From Clostridia bacterium (GTDB lineage: Bacteria; Bacillota; Clostridia; UBA1381): 64,000 bases of DNA. Under the pieces are notes generated by a model. The model was not told the DNA's origin. It searched no databases and was given only the letters and a program-made list of their open reading frames with translations. Location of the stretch: assembly GCA_045603125.1 (NCBI GenBank), contig JAZULN010000021.1:106-64105 (forward strand), read 5' to 3'. The number at the start of each line of letters is the position of its first letter. Positions within the stretch are counted from its first letter, which is position 1. The position numbers were made by a program, and so were the translations under genes. Of this stretch, positions 21,675 to 28,295 are shown piece after piece.

Positions 21675-22751
21675 TTAAGAATTTTTATCTGGATTTTCCT
21701 TTATGGCTTTATATAGCTCTTCGCATATATTTCGCTTCAAGGTAAAACCCGTGCCTGCTAAATTTATGCATAAAGCCTCAACTTTTGGTGCCATCAAAAA
21801 CTCCTCCAATTCCGGAAAGGATAAACTCTTAATTTCGGCCGTTTCCAAAAACTTGCAAATAGATTCATTATCTTTTTTTGCATTTTCCAGTTCTCTATTG
21901 TCGGTAAAAGCAAGTATTAAGGATGATTCAGGTTGCTGCATGGCGGCTACAATGAATTTCCCGTTTATGGTTTTACCTGGGCATATAAATTTTGATGATA
22001 AAATACTATTTAAAACCGCACCATGAGCAACGTTTGCATCTTTCTGAAAGATTTTACTCCGAAGGACCTGAACAAATCGGATAGAGAAAAATTGTAAAGA
22101 TGGGTGGGATACCGTCTCAAAGGTTGTGTCAAATATAGGTTGGTGGTGCATAATCATCTGAGATATATGTGGCTCGACACCGATAGTCTTAATCCCTAAA
22201 GCGGTTAAAAGTTCGAAATATTCTTTTATTTCATCCCTTGAGAATGCTTTTATAAATACTTCACTCTCATGTTCTCTATGATATTTTTCGGCCCAGGCTT
22301 TGGCGTCAGATTCTGAAAAGAATATAAGGGCATATCCCAGGGTTATTAGTGGGAATGGCTTTTTTAAGGCAGAACTAAAAACTGAATATAGAGTTTTTGC
22401 AGATTTAATTTTCAAAGCTATTCCACCGGCTAAGATGTTTAAAAAAGTTGGTCCGAAGCCTTTTTCACCCTTTGGGTCTTTGGCGATAAATTCTTGCGAG
22501 AAAGCTGCCAGAGTTAATATATCTGAAAGTGAGGCTTCGTTTACTGAGTTCGTTAAAACTTCAGCATTATAGACTGACGGGATGAGGTTTATATCTCCGT
22601 TTGATATTACAGGAATGACGTTGCCGATTGATTTTTTAACATCTTCCGAAAGCCCGTAGTCGATAGATTCAGTTGTGTTTAAAGTCGGTTTTTCTTTTAT
22701 TGATTCGCTTTCGATAAAAGTTTCTTTTTTTCTTTTATTAAATAATCCCAT
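21675..22751 (-). CDS. Hypothetical cytoplasmic protein (faint SseB-like resemblance)
   Basis: Good RBS (GGAGG). I recognise no motif with confidence. Segments such as LILAFTDNRELENAKK resemble SseB-type domains. Confidence 0.3.
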   Translation of the reverse strand: MGLFNKRKKETFIESESIKEKPTLNTTESIDYGLSEDVKKSIGNVIPVISNGDINLIPSVYNAEVLTNSVNEASLSDILTLAAFSQEFIAKDPKGEKGFGPTFLNILAGGIALKIKSAKTLYSVFSSALKKPFPLITLGYALIFFSESDAKAWAEKYHREHESEVFIKAFSRDEIKEYFELLTALGIKTIGVEPHISQMIMHHQPIFDTTFETVSHPSLQFFSIRFVQVLRSKIFQKDANVAHGAVLNSILSSKFICPGKTINGKFIVAAMQQPESSLILAFTDNRELENAKKDNESICKFLETAEIKSLSFPELEEFLMAPKVEALCINLAGTGFTLKRNICEELYKAIKENPDKNS

Positions 22752-22917
22752 TTTTATTCCTCCGTTTTATTTTAATTATTCTACCATAATTTGAAAATTA
22801 TTTCAACAGGTTTATTAGTATGCCTAAAAATCCACTAAATTCCAAAAATAATTTACATAAAAACACCTTTTTTGACAAATAATATCTTCATAAACAAAGA
22901 AAAAGGAGATATTTCTA

Positions 22918-23457
22918 ATGAAAGCGACAGGAATTGTAAGAAGAATTGACGATTTGGGAAGAGTTGTTATTCCAAAAGAAATAAGAAGAACTATGCGGAT
23001 TCGCGAAGGTGACCCTTTAGAGATTTACACCGAAAAGGATGGGGAAGTTATATTTAAAAAATACTCACCAATTGGTGAATTGGGGGATTTTGCCCTAAAC
23101 TATGTGGAAACCTTGTCAAAAACATCAGGAAAAGGCACAGTTATAACCGACCGTGATAGCGTAATTGCAGTATCCGGAATCCCTAAAAAAGAGCTTATGG
23201 AGAAAAGAGTAAGCCGGGACCTTGAAAATATTATGCAGGAAAAAAAGGCATTTAATTCAAAAAATGATGAAACCAAGGTTTTTATAGTAGACGGAATGGA
23301 TAAGTATAACGCCGGTGTCGTTGTGCCAATCGTGTCGGAAGGTGACACCATCGGCTCGGTAGTATTTGTTTTGAACGAGGGCGACGTTGCCGGTGAAGTG
23401 GAATCAAAGCTTGCCGAGTCGGCTGCGTGCTTTTTAGGGCGTCATATGGAAGGATAA
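22918..23457 (+). CDS. spoVT: Stage V sporulation protein T (AbrB-family regulator with GAF-like C-terminal domain)
   Basis: MKATGIVRRIDDLGRVVIPKEIRRTMRIREGDPLEIY is the SpoVT/AbrB swapped-hairpin N-terminus. Length is 179 aa. Confidence 0.9.
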   Translation: MKATGIVRRIDDLGRVVIPKEIRRTMRIREGDPLEIYTEKDGEVIFKKYSPIGELGDFALNYVETLSKTSGKGTVITDRDSVIAVSGIPKKELMEKRVSRDLENIMQEKKAFNSKNDETKVFIVDGMDKYNAGVVVPIVSEGDTIGSVVFVLNEGDVAGEVESKLAESAACFLGRHMEG

Positions 23458-23460
23458 CAA

Positions 23461-23490
23461 AAAAGACTGTTGCTAATGCAACAGTCTTTT
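23461..23490. terminator. Bidirectional terminator between spoVT and the 715-aa gene
   Basis: AAAAGACTGTTGC-TAA-GCAACAGTCTTTT. Confidence 0.8.
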
Positions 23491-23493
23491 ATG

Positions 23494-25641
23494 CTATTCT
23501 GCTAATTCTACGTCAACTACAGTTATACCGTTTGGATGAATCTTTGTGGTGAAGTTTCCGTAAAGTTTGCCGATAGTTTCATCATCGTATTTATATCTGT
23601 AATCTACCTCGTCTGTAGTATTGCCGTATTTTACAGGTAATTGCGGATAGAAACTGACAACTTTTGCTTCTTTTATGCCGACTTTGGAATCGACACGGGC
23701 TCTTCTGTAAATTTCGCGTTCCGGATTATATAAATAAATTCTGTATTTGCCGTTGTTGAGTTTTAATGTGATGTTTGGACAATCAAGCTCGATGTGGTCA
23801 TTGAAGGTAGGACAAATGCTTGTAAGTGCCATGTTTTTATCGTTTGCATGCGCCAAAAGCATTGAATATGCTTTTATAAACCCTGTGGTGTGCTTAATAA
23901 ACGGAATTGTACCCGGAACGTGCCAGAACCAATCAGGTGTTTCGTCGATTGAGTATTCAGGCTCGGGTTCAATATCGGGAAGTGATAGACATTCCCTGAT
24001 TTTTGACATCATATCTGCCGATAGAGTTGTTCCCGAGGCAAATATGGTCATTGGGAATTTGGAATTCTTGTCGGTAAAGGACATATCACATTCAAGACCG
24101 TAAGGTGTCATATCAAAGCCCTCGGCAAAGGTCAAAACAAGCGGCCCGTTTTTATAGTCGGCAACTGCTTTTCTTTCATCTTCCGGTAAAAAGTCAAAGT
24201 TTGGAACAAATAATGTACCCTTCGAAGCTTTAATGTTTTCAATTCGGACAGTTCCGCCGAGAGGTGCACCGTGAATTCCTGCTTCATACATAAATTTATG
24301 TACCGACCAACGTCCTGTTTTTATAATTTCAGGAAGTGAATTATACATTGCCTTGTCTGACCATACAATTACCGGTGTTTCCACACTCAAAACATCGCTT
24401 GTATATGCAACCCGGAAGTGTTTTTTAATAAATGCCCACTCGTCAGCCTCGATTGAGTCGCCAAGACAAATCATTGTGCCGTCAGCAGCACGTTTGCAAC
24501 CGTCAGCGGTTACGTGTTGTTGACCAAGCAGGGTATACATATCTCTTTGGAAAAGACATGGCACGTGCTGGAGCATATCCCATTCTTCGGTGGAGTCTTT
24601 AACTCCCAGCATACAAAGTTGCTCATTGCCGTTTATGAATGCGGCATTCAAGGAAGCGGTTGACATATAACGCCAGAATTTATCACAAAAACCGCTCATA
24701 TAAACACTTGTGGGAAGAGTATTTGGCATGATGTAGTCAACACCGGCTTTGAATAGGTGTTGAAGGTCGATGCCGATTGAATATAGGGTTTCGAATGGGT
24801 CGGTACAATATACCGCCAAAGCAATAACCTTTTTATTGAGAGCATGAACGGCATCGCATACTTTTTTAAGGAATCTGTCCCAACGCCAAACGTGGAATAA
24901 AATCCATTGTTCTCTAACATTTTTCCAAATCCATTCGCCTCGGAATCCTACCATTTTATCATCGTCATCACCCATGGTTTTTGCAATCTCTTCAGGAAGT
25001 GTAATCCCTGAATAATCAAGGAACTGTTCTATAAATTCAGTAGAAAAATCACTGTCGTGAAGTATTCCGGCAGGACAGAAACAGTCTGACATCTGGAAGC
25101 CGTCGAAGTCATAGTCTACCAAAAGTTTTGAAAGCTTTTCTACCAAGAAATCCTCATAATATGTACCGTCTTTAAAACGCTTTAACACCATAAGACACTT
25201 CTTGCCGTCGGCTCTTGAATACTGGTGAAGCTCGGGGTGGTCGGTAATCCATTCACGGTGGAAGGTGTTATTATAAGATGCGCCTTGTACACTCAAATAT
25301 GCAGGAATTCCTGCTTTTTTAAGTTCTTTAACAGCACCCCTTAGGTCATATTTTGTCCAGGGCTGGCGTTCGTGAACTGTGTTTTGCGGTATAGCACAGT
25401 ATGAACAGTCATCGGGATGAAGTTCAAATTCGGTTTCCATGTCGGTGTGGTCATGGATTATGTCGGGATGGCAAAGGAACAGACAAACCCCGTCGGGTGT
25501 GCAGTTCATACGCTTTTTAAATTCGCCAACACCGTAGTCGGGTTGATTGCGGTCAAGACCCAAAAGCTGCATCCATATAAACATTTTGCCGTTATCAACA
25601 ATCGGCCTATCTATTTCGGGAATATTTTTAAAGTTATCCAT
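23494..25641 (-). CDS. Large uncharacterised cytoplasmic protein (about 715 aa), possibly glycoside-hydrolase-like
   Basis: No signal peptide or TM segment. The ATG at 25641 has GGAGG upstream. Aromatic/acidic-rich composition reminiscent of TIM-barrel glycosidases, but I recognise no family signature. Confidence 0.3.
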   Translation of the reverse strand: MDNFKNIPEIDRPIVDNGKMFIWMQLLGLDRNQPDYGVGEFKKRMNCTPDGVCLFLCHPDIIHDHTDMETEFELHPDDCSYCAIPQNTVHERQPWTKYDLRGAVKELKKAGIPAYLSVQGASYNNTFHREWITDHPELHQYSRADGKKCLMVLKRFKDGTYYEDFLVEKLSKLLVDYDFDGFQMSDCFCPAGILHDSDFSTEFIEQFLDYSGITLPEEIAKTMGDDDDKMVGFRGEWIWKNVREQWILFHVWRWDRFLKKVCDAVHALNKKVIALAVYCTDPFETLYSIGIDLQHLFKAGVDYIMPNTLPTSVYMSGFCDKFWRYMSTASLNAAFINGNEQLCMLGVKDSTEEWDMLQHVPCLFQRDMYTLLGQQHVTADGCKRAADGTMICLGDSIEADEWAFIKKHFRVAYTSDVLSVETPVIVWSDKAMYNSLPEIIKTGRWSVHKFMYEAGIHGAPLGGTVRIENIKASKGTLFVPNFDFLPEDERKAVADYKNGPLVLTFAEGFDMTPYGLECDMSFTDKNSKFPMTIFASGTTLSADMMSKIRECLSLPDIEPEPEYSIDETPDWFWHVPGTIPFIKHTTGFIKAYSMLLAHANDKNMALTSICPTFNDHIELDCPNITLKLNNGKYRIYLYNPEREIYRRARVDSKVGIKEAKVVSFYPQLPVKYGNTTDEVDYRYKYDDETIGKLYGNFTTKIHPNGITVVDVELAE

Positions 25642-25670
25642 AATGAAACCTCCTAGCATTTGATAAGTTA

Positions 25671-25699
25671 ATTATATTATAATGAAAAATCACTGTCAA
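25671..25699 (-). promoter_or_regulatory. Perfect-consensus sigma-A promoter for the 715-aa gene
   Basis: On the minus strand: TTGACA (25699-25694), exactly 17 nt, TATAAT (25676-25671). Confidence 0.65.
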
Positions 25700-25764
25700 C
25701 CATAAAATAATCTTTAAAAATACTGAAATATTCTTTACATATAATAATGAATACCGGTGGGGTT

Positions 25765-25814
25765 ATGATTATTTTAAAATTTTAGTTGAAATTTATCGTG
25801 GATGGTGGTATAAT
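25765..25814 (+). promoter_or_regulatory. Promoter module copy A (50-nt exact repeat)
   Basis: ATGATTATTTTAAAATTTTAGTTGAAATTTATCGTGGATGGTGGTATAAT, containing TTGAAA (25786-25791), 17 nt, and a TGG-extended TATAAT (25809-25814). Identical to 26498-26547. Confidence 0.7.
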
Positions 25815-25842
25815 GAGTTCAATCGTTTTACGATTAAACTCA

Positions 25843-26024
25843 GCGATATAAATTCCTTACGAAATTTGCGATATACCTTGTGGTGCGATATATCCTGACG
25901 GATGCGATATGTGCCTTCGGCACAAGAAAAAAGAATTTATATCATATCGCAATCGAATAAAATGAGGTTATATCGCATTTGAACGGAGTGAAAATATATC
26001 GCACGAACGAAGTGAGTATATCGC
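25843..26024 (+). repeat. Inverted 4+4 array of GCGATAT / ATATCGC with fully self-complementary spacers, in the 5' leader of the four-helix-bundle gene
   Basis: GCGATAT at 25843, 25868, 25885 and 25904. ATATCGC at 25944, 25970, 25996 and 26018. All seven spacers pair from first to last nucleotide. Confidence 0.85.
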
Positions 26025-26039
26025 TGGAAAGAGGTTATT

Positions 26040-26399
26040 ATGAACGATAAAACTATTAAAGAATTAGCAGTTGAATTAACCGTTGAAGTAACTGCGGTCT
26101 GTGATAGTATAAAAGGTAGAGCAGTATTTACAAATCAACTTTTGAGGTCTTGCTCGTCAATAGGTGCGAATTCACACGAAGCAAAATATGCACAGAGTAG
26201 GGCAGATTTTATACATAAACTTGAAATCGCTCTAAAAGAGTGTTTTGAAACAGAATATTGGTTAGAAATTTTATTCAAAGTAAATGCAATAGATAAGACA
26301 ATATATGATACTTTGAATAACAAGTGCGGAACAATTCGCAGAAAGCTGATAGCATCAGTTACAACTACAAAGAAAAATCAGGATAATAATAACATCTAA
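26040..26399 (+). CDS. Four-helix-bundle protein (23S rRNA intervening-sequence protein / Avd-like family)
   Basis: 119 aa. FTNQLLRSCSSIGANSHEA...SRADFIHKLEIALKECFETEYWLEIL matches the hallmark pattern of this family. Confidence 0.8.
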   Translation: MNDKTIKELAVELTVEVTAVCDSIKGRAVFTNQLLRSCSSIGANSHEAKYAQSRADFIHKLEIALKECFETEYWLEILFKVNAIDKTIYDTLNNKCGTIRRKLIASVTTTKKNQDNNNI

Positions 26400-26453
26400 A
26401 TCGTTCACTGATTCCATAATGAACTTGCCAAACACAGGGTCAAGTGTTTTTCG

Positions 26454-26483
26454 TGCATCAACTATCCGTTGGTGCATTTTTTT
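26454..26483 (+). terminator. Rho-independent terminator after the four-helix-bundle gene (module T1)
   Basis: TGCATCAAC-TATCC-GTTGGTGCA followed by T7. Confidence 0.7.
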
Positions 26484-26497
26484 AATTCAAAGAAGTA

Positions 26498-26547
26498 ATG
26501 ATTATTTTAAAATTTTAGTTGAAATTTATCGTGGATGGTGGTATAAT
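26498..26547 (+). promoter_or_regulatory. Promoter module copy B (50-nt exact repeat)
   Basis: Identical to 25765-25814. TTGAAA at 26519-26524 and TATAAT at 26542-26547. Confidence 0.7.
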
Positions 26548-26553
26548 AAGCTT

Positions 26554-26659
26554 GCCAAACACAATTTGATATTTAATTTATTAGTGTATGAACTTTTACC
26601 TAGGTAAAAGCACATACCCTATTTTTCATATGCTAATAAATTATGAAATTGTGTTTGGC
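26554..26659 (+). other. 106-nt extended hairpin in the leader of the 67-aa gene
   Basis: Four paired segments: GCCAAACACAATTT (26554-67) with AAATTGTGTTTGGC (26646-59), 14 bp; AATTTATTAG (26575-84) with CTAATAAATT (26633-42), 10 bp; GTATG with CATAC; and the apical 18-nt perfect palindrome CTTTTACCTAGGTAAAAG (26593-26610). Confidence 0.75.
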
Positions 26660-26681
26660 CACACGGGGAATGTGTTTTTCG

Positions 26682-26708
26682 TGCACAGGCTCTGCTTGTG
26701 CATTTTTT
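26682..26708 (+). terminator. Leader terminator (module T2) 8 nt upstream of the RBS of the 67-aa gene; putative attenuator
   Basis: TGCACAGGC-TCT-GCTTGTGCA followed by T6. Shares its flanks (GTGTTTTTCGTGCA ... TGCATTTTTTAATT) with T1. Confidence 0.65.
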
Positions 26709-26728
26709 AATTTATGGAGGTAAATGCT

Positions 26729-26932
26729 ATGAAAGAAATTTTAGAGAAACTCCCGGGGATAGGAGTAGATAAAGATAGGGTGAAGGTGATAGAGGATAAT
26801 GCTTTGCAAATAATAAAAGAAAGCGGATGCCTGATTGTTGGGAAAACAGGCGATGATGAGTATACGATAGTATCCATTCTGGAGGATAAAACCCAGGAAG
26901 AAGTATTAAAATATATTGATGAATATAAATAA
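26729..26932 (+). CDS. Hypothetical 67-aa acidic protein
   Basis: GGAGG (26716-20) sits 8 nt upstream of the ATG at 26729. Product begins MKEILEKLPGIGVDKDRVKV. No family recognised. Confidence 0.5.
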   Translation: MKEILEKLPGIGVDKDRVKVIEDNALQIIKESGCLIVGKTGDDEYTIVSILEDKTQEEVLKYIDEYK

Positions 26933-27086
26933 AAATCTTATAAAAGGGGATGTAAAAAAAGTCCAGACCACAAAACGAAAGTAATATATAGAAAAATCTG
27001 AATTTTTCAATTTTTTTTATAATTTTATTCGTTTTGCTATAAAAAATATAGTCACTCGGCGTACCATTGTACGCTGTCGGATAACC

Positions 27087-27112
27087 AAAAGCAAGGCATA
27101 TGCCTTGCTTTT
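27087..27112. terminator. Bidirectional terminator-like palindrome
   Basis: AAAAGCAAGGCATATGCCTTGCTTTT. Confidence 0.6.
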
Positions 27113-27180
27113 GCTATATTTTTTCATTCTGAAACATTTTTTCCTATCCCCACAAAAAGGGGATGTAAATTATTACGTAA

Positions 27181-27220
27181 ATAAAAAGAACTATCTAAGC
27201 TGAGTGCTTAAATAGTTCTT
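27181..27220 (-). terminator. rpsT terminator
   Basis: AGAACTAT-CTAAGC..GCTTAA-ATAGTTCT stem of about 13 bp, with a T-run on the minus strand. Confidence 0.7.
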
Positions 27221-27224
27221 CTGA

Positions 27225-27491
27225 TTAGCCGTTTACTTTAGCCAACTTCACTGCAAGCTGTGATTTCTTTCTTGCAGCTTTGTTCTTGTGGATTATTCCG
27301 TGGCTTACGCCTTGGTCTAATTTCTTTGTTGCTTCGTTAAACAATGCCTTTACGTTTGCTGTGTCGTTTGCATCAACTGCTGCTTCAAACTTCTTAATAG
27401 CAGTCTTCAAAGCAGTTCTGTGCATTTGGTTGATAAGAGTCTTCTTTTCAATTACCTTAACACGCTTTTTTGCTGATTTAATGTTAGGCAC
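27225..27491 (-). CDS. rpsT: 30S ribosomal protein S20
   Basis: (GTG)[20 protein letters not shown]. The GTG start at 27491 has GGAGGTGG upstream. The tracked 27560 start adds a non-homologous extension. Confidence 0.9.
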
Positions 27492-27674
27492 AATTTCCAC
27501 CTCCAAATAGTTTAATACATAATACCGTAATATTCTACCACAGAAAATATAAAAAATCAAGTGCTTTTTTAAAAAAAATTAAAAATTTTTTATCCCGTTG
27601 AATTTGGGCGTTTTAGCATAAAAACTTTTTCTTTGGAATAGATATAATCTGTGACAATTTAAGGAGGAGAGAAT

Positions 27675-28295
27675 ATGGAAAACTATACATTTAATAATAG
27701 TGCTGAAATCTGGGGGCGTGTCGGTGGGGATTTTGAGTTTAGTCATGAAATTTACGGTGAGAAATTTTATATCTTCACTCTTGACGTCCCAAGACTTTCA
27801 GGGACTTTTGATAAGATAAAGGTTATGATTTCGGAAAGACTTATCCCTGAGGGAGAACTAGAAGATGGAGAAATTTTAAAGGTTATAGGACAGTTTCGGT
27901 CATATAACAGCTTTGAAAATGGTACAAATAGACTTATCCTTACGGTTTTTGCCAGGGACATCATAAAAGATGCCCCTGAGGAGGATAACCCGAATAGCAT
28001 TTATCTAAACGGGTACATATGTAAGGAGCCAATCTACCGGACCACGCCCTTTGGCAGGGAAATCACCGATATGCTTTTGGCGGTAAACAGAACCTATAAC
28101 AAATCCGATTATATTCCGGTTATTGCCTGGGGTAGAAATGCCAGGTTCTGCCAAAATCTCGGGGTAGGTGAGAATGTAAGGATCTGGGGCAGGATTCAGT
28201 CAAGAGATTATCAGAAAAAGCTTGATGATGATACAGTAATTACTAAAACCGCCTATGAGGTGTCGATTAGTAAGCTAGAGGTTGGGGAAAATTAA
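27675..28295 (+). CDS. SSB-like protein with two OB-fold-like halves and no acidic C-terminal tail
   Basis: The C-terminal half (IPVIAWGRNARFCQNLGVGENVRIWGRIQSRDYQKK) looks like an SSB OB fold. The N-terminal half is more divergent. Confidence 0.5.
   Translation: MENYTFNNSAEIWGRVGGDFEFSHEIYGEKFYIFTLDVPRLSGTFDKIKVMISERLIPEGELEDGEILKVIGQFRSYNSFENGTNRLILTVFARDIIKDAPEEDNPNSIYLNGYICKEPIYRTTPFGREITDMLLAVNRTYNKSDYIPVIAWGRNARFCQNLGVGENVRIWGRIQSRDYQKKLDDDTVITKTAYEVSISKLEVGEN

Follow-up and report, generated by a model that had tools for sequence, protein, structure and literature searches.

A heptamer-hairpin ladder ahead of Avd-like genes in gut Clostridia, most probably a conserved structured RNA related to Gut-1

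We analysed a window of 64,000 nt from a Clostridia bacterium of the lineage UBA1381 (contig JAZULN010000021.1 of assembly GCA_045603125.1), and within it the stretch at 25815-26039, which lies between a promoter and the start codon of a gene for a 119-aa four-helix-bundle protein. This stretch holds four copies of the heptamer GCGATAT followed by four of its complement ATATCGC, with hairpins in between, an arrangement that we refer to as the ladder. The ladder is a real, strongly conserved structured element that most probably acts as RNA on the gene strand, and we regard it as a variant of the known but uncharacterised Gut-1 kind of RNA, not as something categorically new.

All parts of the locus lie on the + strand. 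A sigma-A-type promoter ('promoter copy A', 25786-25814) combines TTGAAA, a 17-nt spacer and the extended -10 box TGgTATAAT, with 11 of 12 consensus matches besides the TG; an identical copy stands at 26519-26547, ahead of a 72-aa open reading frame (ORF). A 5' hairpin, here called P0 (25814-25842; 13 bp with one mismatch), runs into the first repeat with no free nucleotide. The left half (L, 25843-25923) carries GCGATAT at 25843, 25868, 25885 and 25904 (F1 to F4), each followed by a hairpin (H1 25850-25867, H2 25875-25884, H3 25892-25903 and H4 25911-25923), and the right half (R, 25944-26024) carries ATATCGC at 25944, 25970, 25996 and 26018, separated by hairpins H5 (25951-25969), H6 (25977-25995) and H7 (26003-26017), each of which contains a tandem G.A/A.G mismatch. 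A Shine-Dalgarno sequence, AGAGG (26030-26034), begins 5 nt past the last heptamer and precedes the gene (26040-26399), and the promoter-ladder-gene unit is closed by an intrinsic terminator-like hairpin (26453-26477) with its T run (26453-26485 together); promoter and terminator are both predictions from consensus scans only.

The first-pass annotation of this DNA had given the positions of the eight heptamers, all of which were confirmed by exact pattern search, and these eight, out of 17 matches in the 64 kb, are packed into 182 nt. Its placement of the stretch held as well, with a strong sigma-A-type promoter on one side and the ATG at 26040 on the other, and so did the self-complementarity of all seven spacers over their full length (a single internal C.A mismatch interrupts H1 here) and the tandem mismatches of the three right-hand hairpins. 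The last helix does end 4 nt before the ribosome-binding site, as had been stated, if T26025 pairs with A25842; otherwise the distance is 5 nt, counted from the last heptamer. The stretch can be drawn as a structured RNA of ~210 nt, made of P0 and four identical helices of 7-9 bp (GCGAUAU:AUAUCGC) that meet in perfect four-way junctions. The fold had been proposed as three stacked four-way junctions; its hairpins are proven by covariation, and P0 abuts repeat 1 and therefore contributes a fifth perfect junction.

In profile searches the 119-aa protein matched PF05635 (1.1e-22) and TIGR02436 (1.5e-25), and so belongs to the Avd-like, 23S rRNA intervening-sequence (IVS) protein family. Its closest solved relative is PDB 2RLD (1e-23, five chains), and PADLOC and PHROGs returned no match for it.

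A protein-anchored scan with one genome per species, covering the best 80 of 205 relatives, all of them metagenome-assembled genomes (MAGs) of gut Oscillospirales/Clostridia, placed a 4+4 ladder ahead of 72-93% identical PF05635 (Avd-like) genes in about 72 of the 80 species-level genomes, 20-25 nt upstream of the start codon. Canonical 4+4 spacing was kept in 65 of the 80 and seven more had insertions at the apex, the others being truncated by contig ends or rearranged. The comparison of homologous loci suggested in the first-pass annotation thus found the repeats kept in 72 of 80 genomes, together with compensatory changes in the hairpins.

These changes were followed by three routes, namely an anchor-based parse, a structure-blind MAFFT alignment of 27 length-homogeneous loci (A3) and a covariance model (R1) built from A3 and the ladder structure, the window being outside the 27 training sequences. 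RNAalifold on a MAFFT alignment of 63 ladders had given a poor consensus, because identical heptamers let the MAFFT register slip, and was dropped in their favour. On A3, the ladder structure left 96.1% of cells paired as compared with 18-48% for slid controls, and 21 of 63 pairs showed compensatory change, a count reached in none of 500 shuffles; across 70 ladders aligned to R1, an alignment fitted to the model, 44 of 61 pairs did so. The earlier argument that the hairpins are under selection is well supported by these counts, and the covariance search proposed alongside it recovered the window at 177.5 bits on the + strand (model positions 1-181) and at 49.7 bits on the - strand.

The 21 covarying pairs of A3 all fall within the local hairpins H2-H7. 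The long-range helices of the GCGAUAU family are invariant there or changed on one side only, and the anchor-based parse agrees with A3 that hairpins covary and long-range helices do not. Of the four long-range helices originally drawn, then, complementarity stands, being kept across heptamer types as described below, while compensatory change within the GCGAUAU family is lacking. In A6, where ladders were aligned to R1, the long-range helices switch from C:G to U:A and from U:A to A:U on both sides.

The strand is indicated by the right-hand hairpins. At the H5 tandem mismatch 31 of 38 sequences have the G.A and 35 of 38 the A.G, and the pairs flanking it covary (G:C 15 / A:U 20; U:A 15 / C:G 20). 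It exists on the + strand only; the opposite strand would show pyrimidine mismatches at these positions. H5-H7 are more stable on + in 65 of the 73 hairpins that differ between strands. Counts of G:U and A:C, 30 vs 24 in the hairpins and 16 vs 9 in the long-range helices, discriminate too little to choose a strand. The tandem G.A on one strand, the R1 scores (177 vs 50 bits) and the orientation of Rfam's Gut-1, which agrees with that of the gene, argue that the element is most probably an RNA on the gene strand. Readings as a CRISPR-like array or as repetitive extragenic palindromes or bacterial interspersed mosaic elements (REP/BIME) were rejected, since the spacers are self-complementary and a distinct identity is conserved at each hairpin position.

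The A-rich segment between the two halves, which the first-pass annotation had taken for a linker, is more than a spacer. Its part at 25933-25943 (GAATTTATATC), which we call a'', is conserved and complementary to 25845-25855 (GATATAAATTC), that is, to the 3' part of F1 and the 5' arm of H1. The resulting a:a'' helix has 11 bp in the window and is mutually exclusive with H1 and with F1:R1', R1' being the right-hand partner of F1. All 60 of 60 distinct sequences retain a helix of 12 bp, which covaries jointly with H1 (U:A 49 / C:G 11; C:G 37 / U:A 12), variants including GAGAU:AUCUC in L045 and GAUAC:GUAUC in L038. For the nascent RNA 25815-25943, before any right-hand repeat has been made, a:a'' is the minimum free energy (MFE) fold, while at equilibrium the energy model disfavours it (-49.7 vs -68.0 kcal/mol). 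Since a:a'' would form first and would then have to be displaced, it may constitute a folding or switching step. The apex between H4 and a'' tolerates insertions, as hairpins of 40-90 nt are inserted there in six loci (L004, L025, L028, L029, L049 and L076). Every one of the 63 parsed loci has a P0; its stem measures 5-17 bp, its sequence takes 51 different forms, and 0-1 nt separates it from F1. With this feature the ladders can be described as a superfamily, which we define as P0, 4 x [heptamer + hairpin], a'' and 4 x [complement + hairpin], and of which a full-length R1 match on the gene strand is the mark; the window gives such a match.

The first-pass annotation knew of no described element with such a design. 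Yet Gut-1 (RF01706) in Rfam corresponds to the left half of a sister ladder. Gut-1 was described as a noncoding RNA of human gut metagenomes (Weinberg et al., 2010; PMC2864571), and the literature consulted names no right half, gene link or function. Its consensus repeats a GUGAAAU-hairpin unit three to four times, and the 77-nt Rfam model covers the left half only. The window displays the same architecture, three to four units of a conserved heptamer with a variable, covarying hairpin behind it, on the strand of the downstream gene, but its heptamer is GCGAUAU in place of GUGAAAU. The Gut-1 model scores 22.5 bits at 25841-25935 (+), the best sub-threshold match and short of the threshold of 50, with a weaker match of 16.5 bits on the right half (-, 25934-26026); at Rfam gathering thresholds the window contains only five tRNAs and no rRNA.

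Scans of viral contigs, in the loose three-heptamer form of which most matches were due to chance, yielded complete GUGAAAU x4 / AUUUCAC x4 ladders with P0 and with an a'' that matches its partner (GGAUUUAUUUC vs GAAAUAAAUCC); P0, a:a'' and the 4+4 layout are as in the window. By score (61.7-77.5 bits) their left halves are genuine Gut-1, in the orientation of the gene, and R1, a model of the GCGAUAU type, recovers these ladders over their whole length at 55-93 bits. What sets the GCGAUAU type apart from Gut-1 is its tandem G.A hairpins, which are confined to it. In L254 and L282 the ladder is followed directly by a four-helix-bundle gene whose product shares 50-51% identity with the window protein; only an internally deleted remnant of the gene is left in L252, L266 and L270, and L247/L271, L221 and L313 consist of the ladder alone. 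Further types came from a protein-profile scan, namely one with GUGAAGC x4 / CCUUCAC x4 (L325 and L326; a:a'' = GAAGCGUGC:GCACGCUUC) and a reduced UCGAUAU/AUAUCGA form (L327). The a:a'' helix is retained, in other sequences, in both Gut-1-type and GUGAAG-type ladders. The complementary changes across the GCGAUAU, GUGAAAU, GUGAAG and UCGAUAU types indicate that complementarity between the left and right halves is maintained.

Adjacency of ladder and gene spans three to four heptamer types, down to ~50% protein identity. Proteins of the GCGAUAU type share at least 72% identity, the window protein and its GUGAAAU-type counterparts in L254 and L282 share ~50% (49-51%), and the proteins of L325-L328, compared only with that of L254, are 52-53% (GUGAAG type) and 60% (L327) identical to it. 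Heptamer type thus tracks protein subfamily. One outlying locus, L328:1400-1900, has a 45% identical gene with five tandem CAATTGA/CAATGGA heptamers upstream and an inverted copy downstream, without hairpin spacers; as its arrays flank the gene, they would form a gene-enclosing stem as in rRNA intervening sequences. Gut-1-type ladders (L252, L254, L270, L247, L221, L249 and others) stand immediately 3' of tRNA genes, their P0 is a bidirectional terminator-like hairpin (AAAAAGCACTTGC...GCAAGTGCTTTTT), and in L249, L262 and L227 a truncated transposase-like ORF, putatively IS256-like, takes the place of the four-helix-bundle gene behind the ladder.

What the ladder does can be proposed with less assurance. 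The candidate raised in the first-pass annotation, a cis-regulatory RNA or binding platform for the Avd-like protein, still seems to us the best reading, held tentatively and at slightly less than an even chance. In the form that we put forward, with the same reserve, the ladder would serve the Avd-like protein as its cognate RNA partner or operator, and a:a'' would be a folding or switching step. The window ladder would then be the 5' leader of the Avd-like mRNA, transcribed from the promoter at 25786-25814; a:a'' would be the first helix to form on the growing RNA and would have to give way before the ladder could be closed by H1 and F1:R1'. The finished RNA would partner an oligomeric four-helix-bundle protein, its four identical helices and junctions offering repeated binding sites, and protein bound beside the Shine-Dalgarno sequence might feed back on its own translation and on that of coupled genes, while stand-alone ladders could act in trans as additional binding RNAs. 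Signals and precedent agree with this proposal: a promoter stands right before the ladder and a terminator behind the gene, Avd-type proteins in diversity-generating retroelements (DGRs) are pentamers that bind RNA and reverse transcriptase (RT), and 2RLD, the closest solved structure, has five chains.

Several points weigh against this proposal. Pairing of the two halves in vivo, autoregulation and the role of a:a'' are, like protein binding itself, what we infer from sequence. Four sites find no obvious match in a probable pentamer. The last T of the -10 box is already the first base of P0; a normal start site would therefore fall inside the 5' arm of P0 and would strip its outer 6-7 bp from the window RNA. 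Because the heptamers are invariant within the family, inverted DNA sites would explain the complementarity of the two halves equally well. In L323:1058-1500 and in L282, each with two tandem ladders, a promoter-like box, TGcTATAAT, separates ladder from gene, and the ladder need not be in the mRNA there.

Folding energies do not help the proposal either. The comparison with dinucleotide-shuffled controls recommended by the first-pass annotation was run and gave energies below the shuffles on both strands (z = -4.6 on +, -7.0 on -), a result that the repeats by themselves would produce. ViennaRNA keeps the four long-range helices of the window at a probability of at least 0.95 and leaves the small side hairpins unpredicted. 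The full ladder comes to -46.9 kcal/mol as against -68.0 kcal/mol for the MFE fold, and across 63 loci the means are -44.7 and -57.9 kcal/mol, which puts the full ladder ~13-21 kcal/mol above the MFE in the nearest-neighbour model. Taken by itself, then, the thermodynamic model does not prefer the full ladder. The Turner 2004 parameters charge ~5-6 kcal/mol per four-way junction and credit no coaxial stacking, and since the model penalises junctions and ignores stacking, these energies are weak evidence against the ladder.

A further qualification concerns the gene. A gene-independent metagenome scan by an apex 18-mer returned 57 instances, of which 31 were full ladders, 13 partial or cut and 13 due to chance. 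Among the 27 full ladders with room downstream in this motif-anchored set, nine were followed by the gene and 18 were not; the ladder is not strictly tied to the gene. Thirteen of these 18 come from a single sample, Ga0256405, and are stand-alone ladders, each lacking P0 but provided with a TAtAAT box ~13 nt ahead of repeat 1, and no four-helix-bundle gene was found in ~90 kb around them. The other gene-less ladders include copies directly ahead of a NUDIX gene (L378), of hisB (L344) and of a terminator (L348).

Such copies would fit a structured RNA that works by itself, without the protein, either as a sensor or switch alternating between the ladder and a:a'' or as a processing and stability element cut by enzymes of the RNase III type, comparable with the stem around the homologous ORF in 23S rRNA intervening sequences. 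The mutually exclusive a:a'' and H1, both conserved, would suit a switch; a processing element would be in keeping with L038 and L328, where repeats bracket the gene like an IVS stem, and with the duplex of ~30 bp, near-continuous, that the long-range helices would yield if stacked. Nevertheless, adjacency to the gene persists across three to four heptamer types, L344 and L351 retain the last bases (3' end) of a lost four-helix-bundle gene, so that some gene-less copies are deletion products, and the conserved nucleotides of the ladder are nearly all paired, leaving no conserved unpaired core of the kind that forms a ligand pocket. We therefore consider an RNA acting alone to be unlikely, if not negligibly so.

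The stand-alone ladders of Ga0256405, at least 13 in number (among them L332, L338, L340, L342, L343, L352, L362, L368, L370, L374, L376 and L381), have ACGATAT as F3/F4 and ATATCGT as R3'/R2', and each is preceded by another repeated element, GGGGG...GGGGGTTTTT; an Rfam search of the stand-alone multi-copy loci returned no family. A second full ladder (111 bits) was also seen at L011:3906-4078, ~560 nt past the four-helix-bundle gene and behind a NUDIX-like neighbour.

The DNA around the ladder has peculiarities of its own. In the window, promoter X (25762-25817) is duplicated at 26495-26550 and leader Y (26416-26498) at 26543-26563 and 26665-26723. The ladder-gene unit of ~605 bp sits between X1 and Y1, right after the -10 box and with ATAATGA on both sides, and the twin X2-Y2 (26495-26563) is uninterrupted at the point of insertion and drives the 72-aa ORF, which has no family match. 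To find an empty site, exact-protein look-ups were made; they gave no match for this ORF, or short contigs of 786-2183 bp only. In the second leader copy, 26554-26659 forms an imperfect hairpin of ~100 nt (arms 26554-26578 and 26635-26659, 88% complementary), at the point of which the first copy reads through (...AAACACA|GGG...), and this looks like a separate small insertion.

Elsewhere, short repeats flank the element in L006 (GGTATAAT) and L026 (ATCCTAT). The element is multi-copy in genomes, contigs break at it, and the genes downstream are diverse. In ~25 of the 80 loci a further copy of P0 and/or the left half, in most cases 90-100% identical, comes directly behind the gene or its cargo, and the order is permuted in L040 and L080, the right half preceding the left. 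Left-half copies lie directly after the gene in L035, L036, L043, L044, L046, L050, L051, L057, L059 and L079 and 0.2-1.6 kb downstream in L037, L070, L078, L007 and L058; the second copy, sometimes with P0, is often followed by a terminator, and given two left halves the right half could pair with either. A gene-less GCGATAT ladder in a viral contig (L098:4230-4560) lies between two phage ORFs and is flanked by an 18-bp direct repeat, CCCGGCTAAGCGAGCCGC, of whose last 9 nt the 3' arm of its P0 is an inverted copy.

These features, and the 24 loci discussed below in which the 5' arm of P0 consists of host rlmD coding sequence, would fit an element that works as DNA, with heptamers and hairpins as single-stranded DNA or cruciform sites of a small mobile or recombinogenic cassette and the gene as cargo or accessory factor. 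Among the recurrent neighbours of the 80 loci, of which only the commonest cluster was annotated, there was no obvious recombinase, transposase or RT, and none was seen within ~4 kb of the window element. An integron gene cassette, considered because of the varied downstream genes and the folded repeats, would call for an IntI integrase and attC core sites (GTTRRRY); no integrase appeared among the recurrent neighbours, no search for the core sites having been made. The flanking repeats vary irregularly in length, and most solo ladders lack them. Maintenance of a pure DNA palindrome would have lost the one-strand tandem G.A, and the identities of H1, H4 and H7 are position-specific, as in an RNA architecture. 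The oddities may keep a mobile or recombinogenic reading alive, although they define no mechanism, and we rate it as improbable.

Part of the same evidence could be accommodated by a two-part ribonucleoprotein (RNP) module, its heptamer matched to the protein subfamily, which would be spread and rearranged by a hairpin-templated process; P0 would then be a host flank joined to its inverted copy, and the left half would be copied again behind the cargo. We think this, too, has only a minor chance of being right. Were it true, the orphan status of Gut-1 and the dispersal of '23S rRNA IVS protein' genes would share one explanation.

The rlmD loci suggest yet another possibility. In 24 of the 80 (L030-L078, e.g. 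L069:246-521 and L060:708-2057) an RlmD ORF (TIGR00479, 358-427 bits) runs into P0, whose 5' arm is made of its conserved C-terminal codons (HVE-T/C-V..LL), and stops in GCGATATAA, inside repeat 1. The RlmD/RumA ORF encodes the 23S rRNA m5U1939 methyltransferase, and in L078 two paralogues both end in a ladder. The ladder might accordingly be an rRNA-related decoy, substrate or regulator of such enzymes: F1 with H1 (GCGAUAUAAAUUCCUGACGG; 25843-25862, GCGAUAU-AAAUUCCU...) resembles positions 1933-1949 of E. coli 23S rRNA (GCGAAAUUCCUUGUCGG, L384), the m5U1939 site, and GCGAUAU and GUGAAAU are each one base from GCGAAAU. Yet local alignment of the ladder with the whole 23S rRNA was no better than with shuffles (p ~0.65), and rRNA mimicry was rejected on this ground; moreover, the window has no rlmD gene, H1 differs in sequence in the GUGAAG type, and 56 of the 80 loci are not beside rlmD. 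This explanation appears very improbable.

The proposed RNA partner or operator of the Avd-like protein can be set beside several known systems. The 23S rRNA intervening sequences share its protein family and likewise tie the ORF to long-stem inverted repeats; they differ in that the window locus is outside any rRNA gene, and that here both arms are upstream of the ORF and interrupted by side hairpins. Avd of DGRs works with a structured RNA. A family link between Avd and PF05635-type four-helix-bundle proteins has been reported (PMC10053308). In contrast to a DGR, the six neighbouring ORFs that were tested (21675-28295) include no RT, their Pfam matches being to SpoVT, SSB or nothing, and 25600-27700 contains no repeat of the template/variable (TR/VR) type, only the promoter and leader duplication. 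As a working analogy, CsrB/RsmZ, ToxI and the TRAP-binding trp leader also present identical short sites on one RNA, beside or upstream of a protein gene, and by that analogy stand-alone ladders may act in trans; the sites here would be double-stranded helices or junctions, whereas theirs are single-stranded motifs. From type III toxin-antitoxin systems (ToxIN) the locus differs in having a PF05635 protein and no ToxN/AbiQ-like one (PADLOC, no match), repeats that are four direct and four inverted, and no terminator before the gene.

In summary, Gut-1, an orphan RNA known from metagenomes only since 2010, gains a full-length architecture with a right half, P0 and an alternative helix, as well as relatives in cultivable lineages (Oscillospirales MAGs) and a recurrent protein partner. 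Four identical helices joined through junctions without unpaired nucleotides are unusual among natural RNAs and of interest for RNA structure whatever their function. Proteins of the PF05635/TIGR02436 family are very common and, outside DGRs, without a known role; the presence of a structured RNA beside such a gene makes that role directly testable.

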